Assembly: GCA_030324005.1 (NCBI GenBank)
Contig: JARDVH010000133.1
Span: 23,598,409 to 23,662,408, forward strand
Direction: 5' to 3'
Source of the DNA: Negaprion brevirostris
Taxonomy: Eukaryota
DNA length: 64,000 nucleotides
The notes beneath the pieces are model-generated. The model was not told the origin of the DNA and searched no databases. It saw only the letters and a program-made list of their open reading frames with translations. Below are positions 3,878 through 60,588 of this stretch, piece after piece. How positions within the stretch are numbered: position 1 is the stretch's first letter; each line of letters begins with the position of its first letter. Position numbers and translations under genes: made by a program.

Positions 3878-4094
3878 AAACTAACTGCCTTGTTAATGCT
3901 CTAGCATAATGTATACTGTTGGAATTGCCACTTGAACATGATCAAAACTAGTTACTTCAGCTATGTTAACAAATGCAAACAATGTGGCTATGTTGAATAA
4001 CATTACTCCATTGGGATTCAAGTTGAGATGAGCAAGAGCACAAGAGGAGAAAGGCATATAGGGAAAAAAACAGATGATAGTGAAGAAAGGTGAG

Positions 4095-4402
4095 GAGAAT
4101 AATATCGCAACTGTAGAGGATGCAGAGAATAATATAGTAACTGTCGAAGATGTGGGGAGCAATGTTTCAACTGTAGAGGGTGCGGGGAATAAAGTAGTAA
4201 CTGTAGAGAGTGCGGGGAATAAAGTAGCAACTTAAAAGTCTGTTTATTTCTCACACGTAGGCTTATGTTAACACTGCAATGAGGTTACTGTGAAAATCAC
4301 TTAGTCGCCGCACTCTGGCACCTGTTCCAGTACTGTGGAGGATGCAGTGAATAATCTAGCAACTGTAGAGCGTGCAGAGAATAATACAGCAATTGTAAAG
4401 AA
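4095..4402. repeat. Degenerate 30-bp minisatellite (about 7 units, GAGAATAATATAGCAACTGTAGAGGATGCA-like) interrupted by a SINE tail
   Basis: Units at 4095, 4125, 4155, 4185, 4215 (split), 4347 and 4377; insert at about 4233-4332. Confidence 0.8.
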
Positions 4403-4589
4403 TAATGAGGCCAGCAGAGAGAACAGTGGAGACTTTGTGATTAGGGTAGGATGGGCTGGATTTTCTTCTTCTCATTGTCTCCCCGAAAGCAGGTTCGACC
4501 CACAGCGTCGCAATCCTGGCAGATTCTGAATTCATCCCAGAGATCATACTGTTGACACCAGTCTGATCCATGCTGGTTGTCCAGTCAAC

Positions 4590-7395: not shown

Positions 7396-8737
7396 AGCCT
7401 CTTGAGAATTGGAACTAGACACACAATGGAAGGCGTGAATGGATGAGCACCACAACATTTGATCGTTACCTCCGATGTCCCATGTTCTACTGTTTCAGAG
7501 ATGTTCTCTATCCTATTGGTTTTGTTGGTTGCCTCTTTCTATAGGTTGGACATGTCTAGCATCAAATTTATTAAGGCTCTTCAGCCTCTTGCATCTTCAC
7601 CGATAGCTATTTGCACACCATTTGTTGAGTACACATCACCCATATTCTTCTCCAACAGTATAATTTTGTCTGCATTAAATTAACGTTGCTCTGCTAGCTT
7701 GTATATCCTTCTCAACTCATTATGTATCGGTGCTTTCTGATCTCCCTGTTCCAAAACTGCTCTTTTGGTATAAGTTGCAAAATGGTCCACTCCATTTCTG
7801 AATTCAGATCTTTTTTAAATTAGTGAGAGATGCTTCCACCGTTGAGTTCACAGACACCCAGCTCATTACAACGATAAACACCAGCTCTGACATAGGGTCA
7901 GCTAGACTCAGCGTTGGCTCTATTCTCTCCCCACACATACTGTCAGACCTGCTGAGATTTTCCAGCATTTCCTGTTTTTCTCCCAGCTCATTACTCCCTG
8001 CTCCCCAACAGTTCCCCATTCTTATATAATTCCTCTAAACAGTACTCGTGTTTGCTATATTTCAACCAGCTAATTATTCACTCTGTTTCTACTGCACCTT
8101 TGTGTTTAAATTAACTTTGTCAAAAGTCTCTGGGAAGTCAAGGTACACCACGTCATGGGCATGCAATAGTCCACGGGGTTTGTTACTACTTTAAAGAATT
8201 GAAAAATATCAGTCAGGCTGAATCTTTCCCTTATTTAAGAAATCATTGGATGATGCACTAGGAGAACAACTTGATACTTCTGGATGAGTGAATTAAGATG
8301 GGCTGTATGGCTCTCCATGTTGATAATGATCTTCTGGTCACTTTGCTGGGACCCTGTCGTTTGCCTGACCTCTGAGGTGGAGAATAACACTTGCCGACAT
8401 AAACCAATCATTGTATCATTTAATACAAATTGGAATCAGTTCCTCTCTGCTTGACTGCAGTGCTTGCAAGCCAGTAGAATTGTTTGGATTTGCCTGGACA
8501 ATTTCCAATGGGGAGTATTCAAGCAGTTACCTTTTAAAAGACGAGCCAGATTAAACACTGCTTGATTGTAGAAGCTAAGCTGTGCTCTAGACCACCTCCG
8601 GACAATGTTTTAGAAGAACTGTTAGACTCCCTATAAAAAGGAAACCAATATTTCATTTTGATGTTATGAGTAACATGCATAAATGGATGAATTTTGTTTA
8701 CAATATATTTATTCTCTTATCCCTGTTGTGAATGCAG

Positions 8738-8824
8738 ACGGTGCTCGAGGAACATGCTGATGATGATCAGAAACTGGCCATCACTGGGGTTCCGATTGTA
8801 ACATGGCCAAAGAAGACGGTGAAG
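8738..8824 (+). CDS. KDM2B: KDM2B exon (87 nt), end of JmjC-associated region: [29 protein letters not shown]
   Basis: Acceptor tgcAG (8736-8737), donor GTAAGA (8825), phase 0/0. Matches the recalled human [28 protein letters not shown]. Too short for the ORF track. Confidence 0.93.
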
Positions 8825-9609
8825 GTAAGAACGGATGGCAGCATCATTAACAGACAGAAACACACATGCTTTGCAATATTGAAATCTTTGCGGTTGCAGG
8901 AATGCTAACTGTTCATGTTGATGCAGATTACCAGTTTACTGTATCCAGAACTCTGAAGAATTTTAATATCTTGGTGTTAAAGATGTTTTGCAGTAGTATT
9001 TTCATTCATTTATGTAAATTGTTTCAAGAGTGCTCATGTTGTGATTTGCAGAGAAGGGTTTATTGATCATGTGGTTTCATGTGTCTACAAGTGCATGTTG
9101 ACATTTTGTGTTGTTATATTTTTGCCTTGGGGGTTCATCGTTGAATGTGCTTAAATGACGCAATGTTTATACTTTGTTTGACTTTTGCATGCATTATTCT
9201 TTTGATATCAGGAGTGTATGTTGTTCATGTATAATTTAGAAACCTATTCTATCTGTTAAAGGATGGTAATCAAGTACGTTCATAGAGTTAAATTCAGGAG
9301 GTACATTTCTTTTCACCTTCTGTTTATGAATCAGTTGCTTATGATGAGAGATGCTCATGTTGGGAGATTGGAACAGTTAATGTTCGGCATCCATTGTCAG
9401 CATCAAACGTTCCTTGATATAGCATAGTTAAGCGCCTTGACTCTGCCCTAATGTGTTTCAACTGCTACTTCAGAAGAGTAAACTTTAATGCACCAGTGTG
9501 ATGCTTTTCCACTTCCCACACCAACATTCCTGTGACTTCTCAGAGAGATTGCCAAATTATGGGCAATTTTGTGCTTTGGGGCCATGACAAAGTAATAAAA
9601 AAGGGTTGT

Positions 9610-18790: not shown

Positions 18791-19319
18791 TTGTCCAAAA
18801 GTATAGATAAACTAGAACCGAATCCTTTGATGGTTTTTATTCAGAGACAATAAATATTTTGTCCGTTTTCCTTATTGTTTTGCCAGCTTTTAGCCATGAG
18901 CTGCTGCCAAACCAGACAACAGAAGCTTTATTTTGTGCATTAACTGGACAATGGATTTGAGCAAAAAAAAGTTCACATTTTGGTCATGTGAACCTTTAAA
19001 CTGAACCTTTAAGAGTATGAGTTTCTGTGTCAGCCAACTGGCAGCAGTGTTTATACGGGGGCTGAACGACACGAGAGTGCTTTAACAAATGAACGGAAGC
19101 ATGGAATAATGTTGTAAATGTTCTCTGATTACATCTCCACTCGTTGTGCTCAGTGCATTCAATTCTTCTGGGTTCCGTTGTTGTTTAATATTAGTAATTG
19201 TTAGATGTCTGAGGGTCTGGGGAAGAGCTCTGAAGTCATTTTAGCAGGAGTGATTTGTGAATGTGTCGCGTGTGTGCCCTTACAATGTCATTTCTCCTGC
19301 TGACTCTGGTGTGTAATCA

Positions 19320-19486
19320 CGACCAGCTCTCTATTGTCTGCTTTTCAAAATAACACATCTGCCTCTTTTTGATTGGTCAAATGAAACGGTTCAACCCCAT
19401 CCTGACCTTCCCCTCATGAATATTGATGAGCCTTGAGTGTAGAGGCTGGGTTTATGGTGGAGACTCGTTACTACAGCAGTCCAGCC
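19320..19486 (+). promoter_or_regulatory. Candidate internal promoter/5'UTR of the short KDM2B isoform
   Basis: Reverse CCAAT box TGATTGGTCA (19370-19379) and near-palindrome CTCATGAATATTGATGAG (19413-19430), in a stretch with no recognisable TEs just upstream of the alternative first exon. Confidence 0.55.
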
Positions 19487-19519
19487 ATGTCAGCTTGTCC
19501 CTGGCTGGGCCCATCCTGA
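19487..19519 (+). other. Upstream ORF MSACPWLGPS* in the same frame as the short-isoform start codon
   Basis: gccATGt at 19487, TGA at 19517-19519, 9 nt before ATG 19529. Confidence 0.5.
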
Positions 19520-19528
19520 GATTTGGCC

Positions 19529-19576
19529 ATGTCCCTGAGTGGAGATGATGAGGAGTATGACTCAGACCCAGAGCAG
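19529..19576 (+). CDS. KDM2B: Alternative first coding exon of the short KDM2B isoform (KDM2B-SF-like): MSLSGDDEEYDSDPEQ
   Basis: gccATG start, in-frame upstream stop, phase-0 donor CAG|GTCAGC compatible with the CxxC exon. Resembles the recalled mammalian short-form N-terminus MAMSVSAEDDDYESEPDQ. Confidence 0.85.
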
Positions 19577-20835
19577 GTCAGCTTTCAGCTTTGGTTGTGG
19601 ACGCAGTGGAAGCATTATTTAAAAACAAAACTAGAAAGCCCTTATTGGGGGAAACAATGTCAGAGCCTAAAGTAACTAAGCTGAAGCCAGGCTCTGTTGT
19701 GCTGAATAATGATGGTGGCTGTTCATGTTTTTTAAGGCTGCCAACAGCCTGGTTCGTTTCTTTTTTTTACTGAGGCTTGCTACTTTTAAAGTTGAAACAT
19801 GTGGCATTCTGAGTCCTGCGTGTTTACCTAGGCAGGTATCCGTTACCCAGTTCACAAAGTAATGACCCAAAAAAACCCCTTTTCTCTTCAGGACATTGAA
19901 CAGGCATTTTTGGAGAGTTCATACATATTGTTGGTGTTTGGGATCACCGGCAAATCGACACATGTTAGCGCCTGAAATGTTTCAATAACCATGTTGTGCT
20001 CTTGTGATTTGCAACAGTTTAGTAGCTCCCTTTTGATCCTAGTTTTTCAATAGTGTGTCTCCAGGAAAGATTGTAGTGTTTATACGGCAAAGCAACTTCG
20101 AAAAGAGCGTGGCGTTGCTGCTGTTGCACAAAGTACAGCAGTTGTTTCAATCTGGGACATTAACGCAGCGTGGCCTCCAGTCCGGGGACGGGACTTTNNN
20201 NNNNNNNNNNNNNNNNNNNNNNNNNNNNNNNNNNNNNNNNNNNNNNNNNNNNNNNNNNNNNNNNNNNNNNNNNNNNNNNNNNNNNNNNNNNNNNNNNNNN
20301 NNNNNNNNNNNNNNNNNNNNNNNNNNNNNNNNNNNNNNNNNNNNNNNNNNNNNNNNNNNNNNNNNNNNNNNNNNNNNNNNNNNNNNNNNNNNNNNNNNNN
20401 NNNNNNNNNNNNNNNNNNNNNNNNNNNNNNNNNNNNNNNNNNNNNNNNNNNNNNNNNNNNNNNNNNNNNNNNNNNNNNNNNNNNNNNNNNNNNNNNNNNN
20501 NNNNNNNNNNNNNNNNNNNNNNNNNNNNNNNNNNNNNNNNNNNNNNNNNNNNNNNNNNNNNNNNNNNNNNNNNNNNNNNNNNNNNNNNNNNTCGAGGTCA
20601 TCACTCGATTTTTTTTGTAAATGTTGCTTAATATCCGTATTGATTTCATTGAATTATGTGCTGCTGTGTCAGGGCCCCTGTCTCATGCACCGTATAATGG
20701 ATTCATTGTGAGTGCCAAAAGGAATACTGACTGGGAGAGTTCCTTTAGTCTGTTCCCTCTAGGATTCGGTTTCCTATATAACACCCAGAGAATGTCTGGC
20801 CTGGAATAAAAGGCTATCATTAAACCACCAAACAC

Positions 20836-34388: not shown

Positions 34389-34775
<387 letters not shown>

Positions 34776-38170: not shown

Positions 38171-38760
38171 GTCAATTTGTGGAGGCATCATATTGCATTT
38201 TTATTTTGCCTAGAAAACCTTATCCAACTTTAGAATGAAAATAAATGATGAAAGTTATTGTCATGAATTTAGTCAAGAATGTTGTAAGCAAATTATGAGA
38301 GGTCAAAACGTTATTAAGAAGACAAATGAAGACTGCTGATAGTTTATGCAGTAATGTGTAAGTGAATTGGAAATTTACCGGCTGTCATGTAGCCATTTCC
38401 TACTCCAGTTGTTCGCATTTAATTGAATGAACTCTTTAATGCTTAGCTGCTTAGAAGGCATTAAAGCTCGGCATAGGTTGCAGTTAACCTTCTGTTATTC
38501 TTTATAAAATTGTGTTGCAAGAGCCATTTTCGTGTGACTTTGATCTTAATTTTCAGCCAACCTGATAAGAACCATGTCTCCAATGAACCCTCCAATCTAG
38601 TGTCTGGATCTTTAAAATCTCCTAGTGTTAAATCCATATTACTGTCATATTGTTTCATAAGCCTTCAAGTGATTCACTCGTGCCTCTGTGATATATTCAG
38701 AGCAACAAGTTTTTTGACTCCTAGTGGGGGGGCGGGGGGGGGGGGGTTAANNNNNNNNNN

Positions 38761-38805
<45 letters not shown>

Positions 38806-40419
38806 CCCGCCCCCCCGCCCCCCCCCCCCCCCCCGGAGCAGGGCTGGACTGCATCTTCTCGTGCATTATTCGCACAAGCTCAGTTCCAACATAGGTCACT
38901 CAACAATCGCCTTGAGAAGATCCAAGGTAATATTACTTTACCCCGACTTCCCACAGCACTGGACATTGAGGCTGTTTGTCGTACCTGACTACTTTCCTGC
39001 TGAAGATCATTGAACCGTCACGATGAGGGATTAAACATTGGAAAAGCTTGTATAAATCAGTGCAATTGTTGTTCCCCTGCAAATGCTACAATTAAATGAA
39101 TATTAATGTATAAATAATACACCACCTACTGTTTACTCATCCTTTCTGTACTTCATTTTTTCTCTCATTTTGCCATTCACTAATAATACCGTTCCCAGCC
39201 TTCATGGTAGTAGTTAATTTTAGTTGCTCAAAGTGGGGCTGAAGAGACCTCTGCTTTCCCTCCCTCAAAGTGGAGATCTGACGGTTGGATTTTCCAGAAG
39301 GTACAACTATTTTTGCTGATTAGTAGGAACTTGAATAGTATTAAAATCTCCATATAGATAGCTAACATTTTAAAATAAATCTGAACTTCCAGTTAATAGC
39401 TGAAAGAATGACATGGCACAATTTCACGTTTCAAGACTTTTACCATCACAAAAGACTCAAAATGCAAATGACCAACTTTAAGCAACTTTAAACCACAAGA
39501 ACGAACATTCCTATTCTTTTAGCACAATTGAAAACACACTTCACAAATATATTTTACACTGTCGTTTAAGTGGACATTCAATTTTCCTGGAGCCAATCCA
39601 AGGTGATTTTTGGTTCCCTTCTCAGACTGGGTAACCCCAGAGCTGTTTTTCACAGTGAGATTTTTTTCCTCTGGCGCAAATTAAGCAAATCTTGTTGCCT
39701 AATTTTAATTCCTCGTGAATTTGGCCTTTTCAATCTGCATGTGAGGTCTAACCTGCATTCCTTTGTGATGAACCACAGTGCCTTGCTGTCGTAGCCGCTG
39801 CTCCTTTCCCCAAGCCTGGGAAACTAATCTTGTCTGAGAGTTTTCAGGATATCTAGGACCTTTCCCCTTTCAAAGCCCATCAAGATGGCATCATGAATCA
39901 TGGGGGCTTTGTACCCAGCTACCCTTGAGACTACAACTCTCTTCTATCTTGCAAGTAAATGGACAGTTTTTAAAGCAGTTGTTTAAATCCTGACATGCTC
40001 AACACTTCTCTGGGACCTGCAGTCTATCCACTGTTAGCAAATGGGATGCTGTCATTGTCGTTTGAAGCAGCTTGCGCACTCTTCCCAGTAATACAGTCTG
40101 GGAGCCCTTTGATCTTTAGCGATCAAACCATTTAGACATGCTGTCAGGCAGACTGCAAAATAGGTAATAAGTAGTAGTCACATGAAAAAATGTGGTTTGA
40201 TTAGGAAGAGCCAGCATAGGTTTCTAAAAGGGAAGCAAAAGAGCATCTTACCCACAGCCTATCCCTGTAACCCCCACATATTTACCTCACTAATTCTCCT
40301 AACCTGCACATCTTGGGACACTAAGAAATTTAGCATTGCCAATCCACCTAACCTGCCCATATTTGGAGTATGGAAGGAAACTGGAGCACTTGGAGGAAAT
40401 CCACACGGGGAGAATGAAT

Positions 40420-43050: not shown

Positions 43051-43176
43051 CCGGTCTTGCCACATACAGCAGTCTGTCTCATTTGTGGAGAAGCAGGAAA
43101 GGAAGACACTGTGGAAGAAGAGGAGGAAAAGTTTGATTTCATGCTGATGGAATGCTCAATTTGTAATGAAATTGTG
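43051..43176 (+). CDS. KDM2B: KDM2B PHD exon 1, 3' end lost in an N gap: [42 protein letters not shown]
   Basis: Acceptor tctctatAG (43049-43050). The expected HPGCLK and donor fall in the Ns at 43177-43186; the sequence after the gap is unrelated. Confidence 0.95.
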
Positions 43177-45135: not shown

Positions 45136-45222
45136 GTACAAGATGGAGGTGGAGTTGTCAATGAAGAGCTTCCAAACTGCTGGGAATGTCCAAAGTGTAA
45201 TCATGAAGGAAAGACAGGGAAA
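45136..45222 (+). CDS. KDM2B: KDM2B PHD exon 2 (87 nt): [29 protein letters not shown]
   Basis: Acceptor attAG, donor GTAAGT (45223); conserved [10 protein letters not shown]. Confidence 0.95.
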
Positions 45223-46952
45223 GTAAGTTTTAATTAAAGTTTTCTGTCCAGGCCATTTACTGGGAGGGTCACTATACGTTGACGTTCAGCTGCAGTCACT
45301 AGATAATGATGAGGGACCGCGACTTCTCTTTCCTCCCTTCATTGTCTCTAACATTCAGGTAAATCATAGGAGTCTCATCACCACTGTAACAAGTTGGCTT
45401 ACTCAGCCCAGACTAAGAACTAAAGCGGGAACTTAATTATTTCTTGATGACCTGGTGCAAGCTACGTGGTTATGTTTACAAACAGGATAACTGGGGGAGG
45501 CACCGTTTAGAAGGAAAAATATTTTGACAGGGTTTCATGATTCACTGAATAACTCTAAAAGAAGTCTTAGTTGAATGTTAGCATAAAGCAGCTGTCTGCA
45601 TCATACCCCCGCCCCGCTCCAGTCCAATTCAACATGAAATTATTCAGCCAATCAACAAATTGTCTTTAAGTGCTGTGGAAAATGTAGTTTATTCCATCCA
45701 TGTATAGTCATAGGTTGTTGACATTTAAATTAGGCACCTAATTATGTGATATCAGGTGCAAATTGATGACAGTACACTGGTGTCACAATGCATTATGGAA
45801 TATAGAGCATAACGACATTCCCAGGTGTTCAGCAGTCGGTTGCCAACTTCAGCCTGGCCATAGGGTTGAGTGCCAAACAATCTCAGACGATGAGCAAATC
45901 TGCTCATTGGTCAACGCACACATGTGGACTTCACTGCTGCTCATTCTGTGGTGAATAAAAGATCTGGAACATGGTTCTCTTTCAGCTAAGTTTTACCTGC
46001 TCCGCGACACACCATGTTCTGTCATTATGTATGTCAAGCTCATGCACTTTGTGAATACTTGCTTTGTCAATCACTAGCTGACAGTATCTGGCACTGGACG
46101 TGGAATGGAATATGTATGTACAACTGTTGAAGCTAATACAAAGCATCATTGTGGCCACAAAACACAGAATGAAATATGTCCAACAGTGCCACAGGGTCAG
46201 GGTGTCATTACCAGAAGATTGGGAGCAGGTTGACTGTTCTTTCTTTCAGGGAATAGTGCATGTCAAATTAAACTTGAAAAGAAAATGTTTTGACACAGGT
46301 AGATTTGTGGCAGGAATAATTTTCTTTTGGCTGTGACAGTCTCTGAGATGAGAGCAGTGGAGAATGAGGAACCAGTTGATGTATTCTTTAACAGGGTTTG
46401 CAGTAATTGCAACAACCATATTATGTATTTTTTGTTGCATAATCTGGGATTTTGGGAATGCAGGCATGATTATATCAATTTTTCTGTGAAAGTGGAAAAC
46501 CAATTGTTTCTGTTGCAGTACACAAAAGGGAGGTTGGTTGTGATTTCCCATAATTAGGGCTATTATTTTACAATAACCAAATAAATCAAGTTCCATTCCT
46601 TTTGTATGGGAATTATTGATACTTTCAGACTGTGTTCTGCAATTCTGTCTACTTTTTCAAAACTAGCCAGTAGTGACTTTGACTTTAGGAAGGTGTCTGA
46701 TATTCTTTATTACAGCATGATAATGTGGTTGTGTTTGTGAAATTTAGGGCTTATCCACAAGAAACTGTTCAAAAAAAGAAAGCAGGGTAATAATTTTATT
46801 TAAGTCAGGAACTGAATTTTGGAGCATAATTTCTCCACAAATCACTGCTCAGACCCCAACTTGTTCTGAATGAAATTTTGATAATTTTCAATATTTTCTG
46901 TAAGTGGCAGATTTATTTAATTTTCAGCTAATGAAGTACTGTGCAATGCAGT

Positions 46953-51952: not shown

Positions 51953-52093
51953 TATATCTGGTATTAATTTCTGCTCTGTTATTTCAATCAGTGTGTAGGC
52001 AGAGTAAAACTATTAAGCATAAACATTACAATGACACCCTAAGACACGAGATATAAAGTTGTATCTGTGTTTTTTCTTCTTCTGGTCTATAAG

Positions 52094-52357
52094 CAGAAAA
52101 GAGGGCCAGGGTTTAAGTATGCCTCCAACCTCCCAGGTTCACTACTGAAGGAGCAGAGGCAGAACAGAGAACACAAGGATTCTGCAGAGACGACCAAGAA
52201 AAAGGGAGACCGTGAGGAAAATTCCAAACGGAGATCAGAGGAGCATCCCAAGAAAAGATCCGATGACTCTGTTCCAAGGAGGAAATCTGAGGATGGGCTT
52301 GTGATGCGAAAACGGAGAGTTTTTGATAAAACATCTGAGCCAATTGCCAGAAAAAAG
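52094..52357 (+). CDS. KDM2B: KDM2B linker exon (264 nt, or 261 nt from the second AG): [21 protein letters not shown]...PIARKK
   Basis: Tandem acceptor AAG|CAG| (52091-52096), donor AAG|GTGCAA (52358). Confidence 0.92.
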
Positions 52358-53890
52358 GTGCAAGAATAAAAACTGAACAATTGATAAAGCAGATTCATAT
52401 AGACAGGATTATTGATGAATGTGCCATTATTAAATAACACTCATCAACTTGTGCACCTATTTAAGATTGTATCTCATGAGATTAATTTTAGTGTTTATTT
52501 TACTACAAAAATTCAGAACCTCATTTAGTAATATTTATTATTTGCAAAAAGCTGATCAAGCTTTTCAATGAAATGCACTGATTTATAGGTCAGTAAGATC
52601 ACTATTGATGAATTCCTGATTCACTGCTTCTCTGTACCATCCCTGCCTGACCTGCCATCGTTCATAGCAGAACCAGGGCAATTGGCAAATATAAATAGGC
52701 ACAGTCTGCATTGTGACCATGATTATTGGTCTGAGTAGAGGAAGGCATTATTCCCTTTTCTGACAGTTTTTTCTTTAGAGTTCCCGTATTAGCTCATGGC
52801 ACTAAATGTGGAATTCACTGCTCTCCTTTTCGTGACTCTTTCTGTGCCTAATTTATCCCAAGTTTTCTGTAAATCTCCACTGCAGACTCCAAATCCATTG
52901 TTCACTGTTCAAACTGTTATAAAATCTGGTTTTCATTCTAGAATACAACAAGCATTATTTGGTTCTTTATGACATAGTTATATAATTTTTTTGTTGCATA
53001 TTGTTTATTTGTCAATGTTTTAGTGAAGTATTAGAACAATCTAAATGTGTGACAACTTTTATTGTGTGGTATTGACAATCTAGTCTGTTGACATGTTATT
53101 CTGTATCAATTTAATGCATGATCCGAGCTGCAATTTGAGTCATGTATGTATGTTAATGTGAGGAGCCATCAAAGTTGAATCTTAATTCTGTCCTCACTTG
53201 ACCATCTCCCTGGTCTGGCAGCACAGAACCACATTGCAGTTTTGCTGCTGCTGTACCAGCTAACTCTGAATGGACTGAAGTTTGAACTTTAGACTTTAAT
53301 CCTCTGTGCGGTTCAGCTAATCACTTCATAACCTTGCTGAGCAATTGGGGAAGACAAAAAATATTCTTAGTAGGGGCAAGAGAAGTCAATTGGTTTTGTA
53401 GTGTTCTAAATCACGCTATTTGAAGCAAAATGTCTTTATTGGTATTTGTGTAATATGGAGGAACAGCCTCCCTATCCTTTCTAAAAATTACCCATCTGCA
53501 ACATGTACTTTGAGTTGATTACAAAGTAACCTAAGCAGTGTACATTGTATTGACTGTGCTGCAATCTGTAAATTGTTATTTTGCCAACTATTCAGTCAAG
53601 TCTATAATTACCAATATTATAAAACCTATTGTTAAGCAATGACTGCTGAATGTCCACATCAAGCATTATGGAACAAGCACTGACCATGCTGGCAGGAAGC
53701 TGAGTGATTGAAAGGCTTTCTTTCACTCTGATGCAAATGGTTGAATTGCTGAAAGCTGTAATAAACAGACTGATTTCTGGAGAAGAACTTCAGTTCATAT
53801 TTCCTGCCAAAGAAACTATTATTCTGGTGTAATAGAATCAGAATGACCTCTGCTGTGACACTGACTCAGTCTGCTTTCTTTTTGTTGCAG

Positions 53891-53929
53891 TTTAAGATTG
53901 GAAAGGAAGAAAAACTGCTGAGGAAAAAG
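53891..53929 (+). CDS. KDM2B: KDM2B 39-nt small exon: FKIGKEEKLLRKK
   Basis: Polypyrimidine tract plus ttgcAG, donor GTATTT (53930). Matches the recalled human LKPGKEDKLFRKK. Confidence 0.88.
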
Positions 53930-57053: not shown

Positions 57054-57733
57054 AAAAAATCCTTGCAGCCAAATGAAGACCACCCACCAGCTATCAAAGC
57101 ATTGCGAAGTATTAAGCAGGAGCCTGAGGATGATCCACCAGAGACACCTCAGAAAACAAAGGAGAGTGACCAGTCCAGATCGAGCTCTCCAAGAGCTGGT
57201 CCCAGCACTGAAAGTGCAGAGACCAAGGAGAAGAAAAGCGAGAGATTTAAAGAAAAACGCAAAAAGCGATTGCACAATAAAGAACTTAGTAAAGAACTTA
57301 GTAAAGAACTCAATCAGGAGATTCATAAAACTGAGACTAGCCTGGCAAATGAGAATCACCAACCGATTACATCTGATGGAGATAGTTAAAAATTCGAGAA
57401 GCCTAAACGACTGCTGGCAAACAGTGAAAGGTTGCACAGGTTAAGCAAAGGGTTAAATGGAACTCCCAGGCTCAGAAATCAGCTTACCACGAGTTTGAGG
57501 CGGGCTCCCAGGGTTATCTCCCGCCCACCGCCCTCTGTGTCCCCAACTAAATCTATTCAAATGGAGCGACATGTGGTGCGGCCTCCCCCTGTCAGCCCAC
57601 CCCCGGACTCTCTGCCCCTTGATGATGGCGAGGACCATGTGATGCAAAGGGAAGTGTGGATGGCTGTGTTTGGCTACCTTAATCGCAAAGATTTATGTAT
57701 TTGCATGAGAGTCTGTAAAACCTGGAACAGATG
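57054..57733 (+). CDS. KDM2B: KDM2B large linker/F-box exon (680 nt) with one in-frame TAA at 57387-57389
   Basis: Acceptor caacAG, donor TG|GTAAGT (57734, phase 2). Track ORFs 57063-57389 and 57432-57737 are in one frame. F-box segment [29 protein letters not shown]. Confidence 0.93.

Positions 57734-60138: not shown

Positions 60139-60588
<450 letters not shown>

Follow-up and report, generated by a model that had tools for sequence, protein, structure and literature searches.

A probable first exon of the KDM2B short isoform in a shark, and its likely kinship with FBXL19 and a fourth KDM2 gene of cartilaginous fishes

The large intron lying 5' of the CxxC exon of KDM2B in the shark Negaprion brevirostris harbours a 16-codon, acidic exon that is, on the strength of sequence comparisons, very probably the counterpart of the mammalian KDM2B short-form first exon and likely to work alike. 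The stretch analysed here, referred to as the window, is 64,000 nucleotides long. Similar peptides open proteins of other vertebrate KDM2 genes, and the short form is likely to predate jawed vertebrates. Taken jointly, the comparisons favour, with reasonable rather than full confidence, a history in which the short form was invented at the founding of the vertebrates, with a first exon older than both the split between jawed and jawless vertebrates and the duplication by which KDM2B and FBXL19 parted. In that case the short isoform would have been frozen into genes as FBXL19 and as a fourth, unrecognised KDM2 ohnolog retained by cartilaginous fishes, a partition repeated by teleost kdm2ba after the teleost genome duplication.

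The mammalian short form, KDM2B-SF or FBXL10-2, is established (Boulard 2016, PMC4888662; Vacik 2018, PMC7000146). According to the available text of three reports, it exists in mice, where deleting the promoter together with the first exon removes it, and is able to recruit PRC1 (PMC4888662, PMC7000146, bioRxiv 10.1101/561571). The conservation of the short form is left open in the accessible part of Vacik et al. (PMC7000146), and the accessible part of PMC12361114 presents mammalian data only.

As judged from its sequence, the gene in the window is KDM2B, not KDM2A or FBXL19. About the 3' two-thirds of the gene, on the plus strand, fall within the window, and the closest named proteins are those of Mustelus asterias. 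Exons of the JmjC region lie 11-40 kb upstream of the window (C133:23558521-23587505) and are followed by those encoding the CxxC and PHD regions as well as the F-box and LRR regions. The last long-form-only exon, located by tblastn of the Mustelus long form, occupies 8732-8824, with an approximate start and a donor at 8825; as it ends AAG|GTAAGA at 8824/8825, the intron runs from 8825 to 34427, which bears out the 25.6 kb given in the preliminary description. Downstream, on the same strand, are the shared CxxC exon (34428-34652, from sequence and tblastn), serving as acceptor for long-form and short-form first parts, and a series placed by tblastn: PHD exon 1 (43051-43176), running into a 10-base N gap; PHD exon 2 (45136-45225), a linker exon (52091-52357) and a short linker exon (53888-53929), all three given as tblastn limits; a large F-box exon (57054-57733); and the first LRR exon (60187-60351). 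Two more LRR exons lie 2-4 kb past the window end, and the last KDM2B exon was not found in the 60 kb searched, 20% of which is N. The window CxxC exon is 100% identical to a Mustelus KDM2B-like sequence that itself falls in the KDM2B clade (94/99), and this clade has support of 90/97 in a smaller tree without the Mustelus row. By eye, the window also contains a short tandem repeat region (4062-4471), a tract of G/C runs surrounding an N gap (38674-38900) and, in many intronic stretches, degenerate LINE/SINE-like fragments typical of shark introns.

The coding part of the candidate first exon, MSLSGDDEEYDSDPEQ, extends on the plus strand from an ATG at 19529 to 19576 and ends CAG|GTCAGC. The earlier span of 19529 to 19582 was correct for the coding exon but took in six intronic bases, namely the phase-0 donor GTCAGC (19577-19582, plus strand). 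The previously described combination of an acidic 16-codon exon, an upstream in-frame stop and a phase-0 donor agrees with the sequence: an in-frame TGA is present at 19517, and the predicted junction from 19576 to the acceptor TTACAG|AAT at 34427/34428 opens the frame NRAVGRPK...RQCIA, the other two frames being closed. The exon hence sits in phase in the intron directly 5' of the CxxC exon, as a short-form first exon should. It had been thought absent from the open reading frames of the region, but is contained in a 51-aa stop-to-stop frame (19520-19675). Bony-vertebrate short forms begin M-A-M/L; the first of these methionines is absent in the shark, which has TTG at 19523, so that the second is the predicted start. 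Two further in-frame ATGs lie upstream, at 19454 and 19487, both closed by the TGA at 19517. The latter, 42 bases before the main ATG and in frame with it, opens a putative upstream ORF of 10 codons (19487-19519, plus strand).

With only 48 bases, and with eight ATG-started, stop-free frames of 10-30 codons ended by AG|GT in the intron, a chance micro-ORF has to be considered. Among these eight, the candidate has the highest share of aspartate and glutamate (0.44; next 0.17). Alignment to the mammalian short-form first exon had been set beforehand as a test, and the best match in the 64-kb window to the 18-mer opening the mouse short form is the exon at 19529 (E 2e-7; next 0.08). Its peptide is identical to that of mouse KDM2B-SF (NP_001365794.1) at 8 of 16 positions, and six of the eight differences are exchanges between aspartate and glutamate. 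Against independent short-form starts E values range from 2e-7 to 3e-13, and these, together with near identity to an annotated shark isoform, refute a chance origin, which retains practically no probability.

That isoform is the basking-shark kdm2bb isoform X19 (XP_078410330.1, 737 aa), in which 15 of the 16 first-exon residues are identical to those of the window. The two share the same junction, the residue following it being H in the basking shark and N in the window; however, XP_078410330.1 comes from another species and is an automatic, predicted (XP_) model for which no published result was found. Together with the homology to mouse, it supports the identification of the exon as the short-form first exon of KDM2B in cartilaginous fish, while the epithet 'hidden' was overstated, since the RefSeq model already includes it. 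Pfam domains in this protein comprise CxxC, PHD and F-box, with no JmjC, and its LRR region is identical to that of mouse at 213 of 241 positions; with its exons mapped to the window, the predicted short-form product has no JmjC and retains CxxC and PHD along with F-box and LRR. An AlphaFold2 model of the basking-shark short form has a mean pLDDT of 50.8, with residues 1-147, known zinc fingers included, below 50, too low to inform on the peptide.

Among the best 120 of 706 matches in a protein search with the CxxC exon, JmjC-less proteins from mammals, a marsupial, birds, lizards, a catfish and the basking shark open with the same acidic peptide, immediately ahead of the CxxC exon, and the window peptide aligns with the short-form starts of mouse, marsupial, bird, lizard, teleost and basking shark. 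The motif was absent from the 70 residues preceding the CxxC start in all 123 long forms; one loose match, P0287, was discarded as a long-form start without the aromatic residue. In bird short forms (P0030, P0045, P0048, P0051) the first-exon peptide ends in a Glu-Pro/Gly-Pro insertion, with the acidic core kept. When residues 1-42 of the basking-shark short form served as query in a word-limited search, eight proteins came up, none of them a further short form. Some observations count against the short-form reading. The basking-shark model, itself a prediction, has no companion among the listed shark KDM2B proteins: no short form occurs among 15 listed members of a 184-member shark cluster or in any of seven chimaera members. 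The donor GTCAGC is non-consensus, and there is no CpG island at the exon (GC 0.44 and CpG o/e 0.37 in 19001-20000), unlike at the paralogous exon described below.

The exon lies within a near-invariant block (19250-19644, plus strand) that likely comprises the promoter and 5' UTR, including an ATTGG at 19372-19376. Two related organisms show 1 and 0 listed changes over its 395 nt and 5 and 8 changes over 306 nt of flanking sequence (Fisher p 0.06 and 0.001, with the borders of the block chosen afterwards). The start, frame and donor of the exon are intact and unchanged in both. This near-invariance of the entire block, the conservation of upstream non-coding bases and donor between paralogs, and the absence of the peptide from bony-vertebrate FBXL19 could be accounted for if the exon, while real and homologous, were retained chiefly for its role at the DNA or RNA level (as promoter, 5' UTR or upstream ORF) with the peptide as a passenger. 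This appears unlikely, though it deserves some weight, given the retention of frame, start, phase and acidity from hagfish to mouse, the six aspartate-glutamate exchanges among eight differences between shark and mouse, and length changes that preserve the frame. The earlier proposal that the acidic peptide is itself under selection is supported by acidity-preserving conservation, but the bony-vertebrate FBXL19 proteins examined lack it.

A TAA at 57387 stands in frame in the F-box exon, and a further G-to-T change occurs at 57393; these would make annotation call KDM2B broken. All four sequencing runs inspected (from at most three samples) read G at both positions, including the near-identical X1, where the site lies 15 bases from a contig end, so the two changes are likely to be assembly errors. 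Although the TAA and the lack of a CpG island could be read as signs of a relic exon that is silent in N. brevirostris, or of a gene disabled by the stop at 57387, the four runs and the unchanged start, frame and donor in two relatives leave such a reading very improbable.

A second CxxC exon in the genome, on contig C140, is 74% identical to that in the window and belongs to a JmjC-less, fourth member of the KDM2 family (G000:C140:39232724-39327534, minus strand), whose only RefSeq name is 'KDM2B-like'. A 14-codon exon, MALSPDDEDYDTSQ, lies 63 kb upstream of this CxxC exon and has the same donor, CAG|GTCAGC, identical in all six intronic bases. The two first exons align as DNA (score 80 over 123 nt, vs 17 +/- 8 in 2000 shuffles), and the 50 nt of UTR before the start alone score 27, a value that 2000 shuffles never reached and that 2 of 13504 genomic tiles did. 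Both genes also retain an upstream ATG, at -42 in the window and -44 in the paralog, with AGCCATG as its context and TGGCTGGG after it; in the window it is in frame and closed by a stop, whereas in the paralog it is out of frame and overlaps the main start. A 24-nt pattern matches only these two exons genome-wide, albeit circularly, having been built from them. The first-exon region of the paralog is CpG-rich (o/e 0.77), and no JmjC match was found within 400 kb around the gene (14% N). The gene is represented by 14 proteins from 11 cartilaginous fishes, chimaera included, all without JmjC and 13 of them starting with the peptide; its LRR region is identical to that of mouse KDM2B at 146 of 241 positions.

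This paralog resembles KDM2B in its homologous first exon, donor and upstream ATG, and in having an ORAI gene head-to-head, but differs in being short-only, in forming its own clade (100/100) and in its CpG-rich promoter. At each locus the head-to-head neighbour is an ORAI-family gene, and the contig also carries a BCL7 gene and a CARP-type gene; the latter is 42 kb past the window end on C133 and at a distance of 3 Mb on C140. We take these neighbours to be ORAI1 and RNF34 for the window locus, and ORAI2 and RFFL for the paralog; the shared neighbours fit those of genome-duplication paralogs. A 163-codon open frame, resembling an Ig-type exon by eye, lies on the plus strand between the paralog and its ORAI gene (G000:C140:39496379). 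Elsewhere, an intronless ORAI copy (L028, G000:C31:16066171-16066746) closely resembles the ORAI gene of C133, has several substitutions at conserved sites and is probably a retrocopy.

An initial identification of the C140 gene as FBXL19 was rejected, as the two form separate clades and coexist in horn shark and sawshark; the orthology to FBXL19 thus did not hold. Since each of these species carries KDM2B, the C140 gene and an FBXL19-like gene, the C140 gene counts as a fourth. Nor does it appear to be a shark-specific duplicate of KDM2B, an arrangement rejected with p-AU 0.0004 (groups having been named after seeing the trees). Trees were built from 411 columns of the CxxC-PHD and F-box-LRR regions, with the first exon left out and mis-modelled stretches masked in seven rows. 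With 37 rows and LG+G4, KDM2A, KDM2B (including both teleost copies), the C140 gene, FBXL19 and the cyclostome proteins each formed a clade, and the last three grouped together with support of 97/94. In a smaller tree under a mixture model, with 11 near-duplicate, long or gappy rows dropped, this grouping had support of 96/92, and that of C140 with FBXL19 alone 80/75. The AU test rejected the placement of cyclostomes with KDM2B (p 0.03; groups again named after seeing the trees), and rejected neither C140 with KDM2B (p 0.10) nor the monophyly of the gnathostome genes as a whole (p 0.10). Beyond the tree columns, both C140 proteins and all four FBXL19 proteins checked share a linker signature, ER[FI][KR][RQ]M with a serine run after it, which was absent from three KDM2B and two cyclostome proteins. 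The C140 gene, laid out like FBXL19, is likely to be its sister, and the trees favour placing the JmjC-less cyclostome proteins on the FBXL19 side.

The close resemblance of short forms to FBXL19 was noted by Long et al. (PMC3685328), and Dimitrova et al. (PMC5997449) refer to two paralogues of KDM2A in vertebrates, amounting to three paralogs; the available portions of both note the resemblance in domains and make no mention of a shared first exon. FBXL19 has the same domain layout as the KDM2B short form but is a separate gene, never has JmjC and recruits CDK-Mediator (PMC3685328, PMC5997449). A profile search showed that the FBXL19-like proteins of sawshark and horn shark start with a homologous peptide, MALSPEDEEQ. 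Similarly, two JmjC-less lamprey proteins (XP_061417833.1 and XP_078729786.1) start MANLS[AT]DEEDY, and two JmjC-less hagfish proteins contain MATLSADEDEF behind a 43-residue leader. FBXL19 of goby, alligator and sturgeon starts at an inner methionine, the peptide being absent, so the peptide is dispensable in that lineage; FBXL19 itself was not found in the N. brevirostris assembly. Teleost kdm2ba proteins begin with the same exon peptide and lie within the KDM2B clade. As all 22 listed are without a JmjC Pfam domain (727-835 aa, 18 of 22 with the motif at the start), kdm2ba is apparently, among the proteins listed, a short-only duplicate. These entries are listed as P0190-P0243 and P0246; for teleost kdm2bb there are long forms as well as what is probably a short form (P0218).

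The presence of the peptide in lamprey and hagfish, along with the trees, indicates that the claim of a two-promoter architecture older than the split between cartilaginous and bony fish holds and was probably too cautious. It might be countered that the exon originated in a single lineage once duplication had occurred and reached the others through gene conversion or late rediploidisation, the two-promoter state then being younger than the first vertebrate genome duplication. Such a history would suit the failure to find the motif for KDM2A, whose C110 locus is 60% N (84101 of 140000 bases) and yielded no CxxC exon, and in 0 of 32 invertebrate-like proteins, which is weak evidence as all are long-form models, with no amphioxus or tunicate protein identified among them; it would also suit the p of 0.10 for C140 with KDM2B. 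The lamprey and hagfish peptides, divergence between the paralogous exons as expected for old duplicates, and the linker signature of C140 and FBXL19, absent from KDM2B and cyclostomes, make it quite improbable.

Under the favoured, ancient origin, the exon would already have been present in a JmjC-bearing gene before the KDM2B and FBXL19 lineages, and jawed and jawless vertebrates, parted. As KDM2B would owe its JmjC to invertebrate KDM2 and has the exon in common with FBXL19, the C140 gene and cyclostome genes, their shared ancestor most simply had both starts. Duplicates would have kept the short unit alone at least twice: one lineage, giving FBXL19 and the fourth chondrichthyan gene, would have lost the JmjC half, and teleost kdm2ba would have done so again. 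In N. brevirostris, an internal promoter would start a transcript at the window exon, splicing to the CxxC exon, to yield a predicted product of about 740 residues without the demethylase domain. Of six sequencing runs none is recorded as RNA, and those aligned to the window showed no splice joints, which is neutral for this prediction. By analogy with work in mice, this protein may bind unmethylated CpG through CxxC and bring PRC1.1 through its F-box/LRR end; more speculatively, the acidic tail beside the basic lead-in to CxxC might tune DNA binding or protein stability.

The bare claim that sharks have a KDM2B short form is modest, as RefSeq already predicts it. The literature searched, which included few subscription papers, held no report of a shark short form, the shared first exon, the fourth paralog or a JmjC-less kdm2ba, though the ohnolog database of PMC13450315 may list these genes; nothing on these questions appears in the available portions of PMC10912607, PMC2579438, PMC9916924 and one supplement of PMC13450315. 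What merits follow-up is the extension, namely an exon of likely pre-gnathostome age through which the short form is linked with FBXL19 and the fourth KDM2 gene. If true, an enzyme-free, CpG-reading scaffold would be as old as vertebrates and would have been repeatedly split off as a gene of its own, giving FBXL19 a concrete origin and adding a fourth vertebrate KDM2 gene. Teleost kdm2ba would then offer a ready-made 'short-form-only' locus for genetics, and attention would be drawn to an unstudied, conserved acidic peptide and its upstream ATG.
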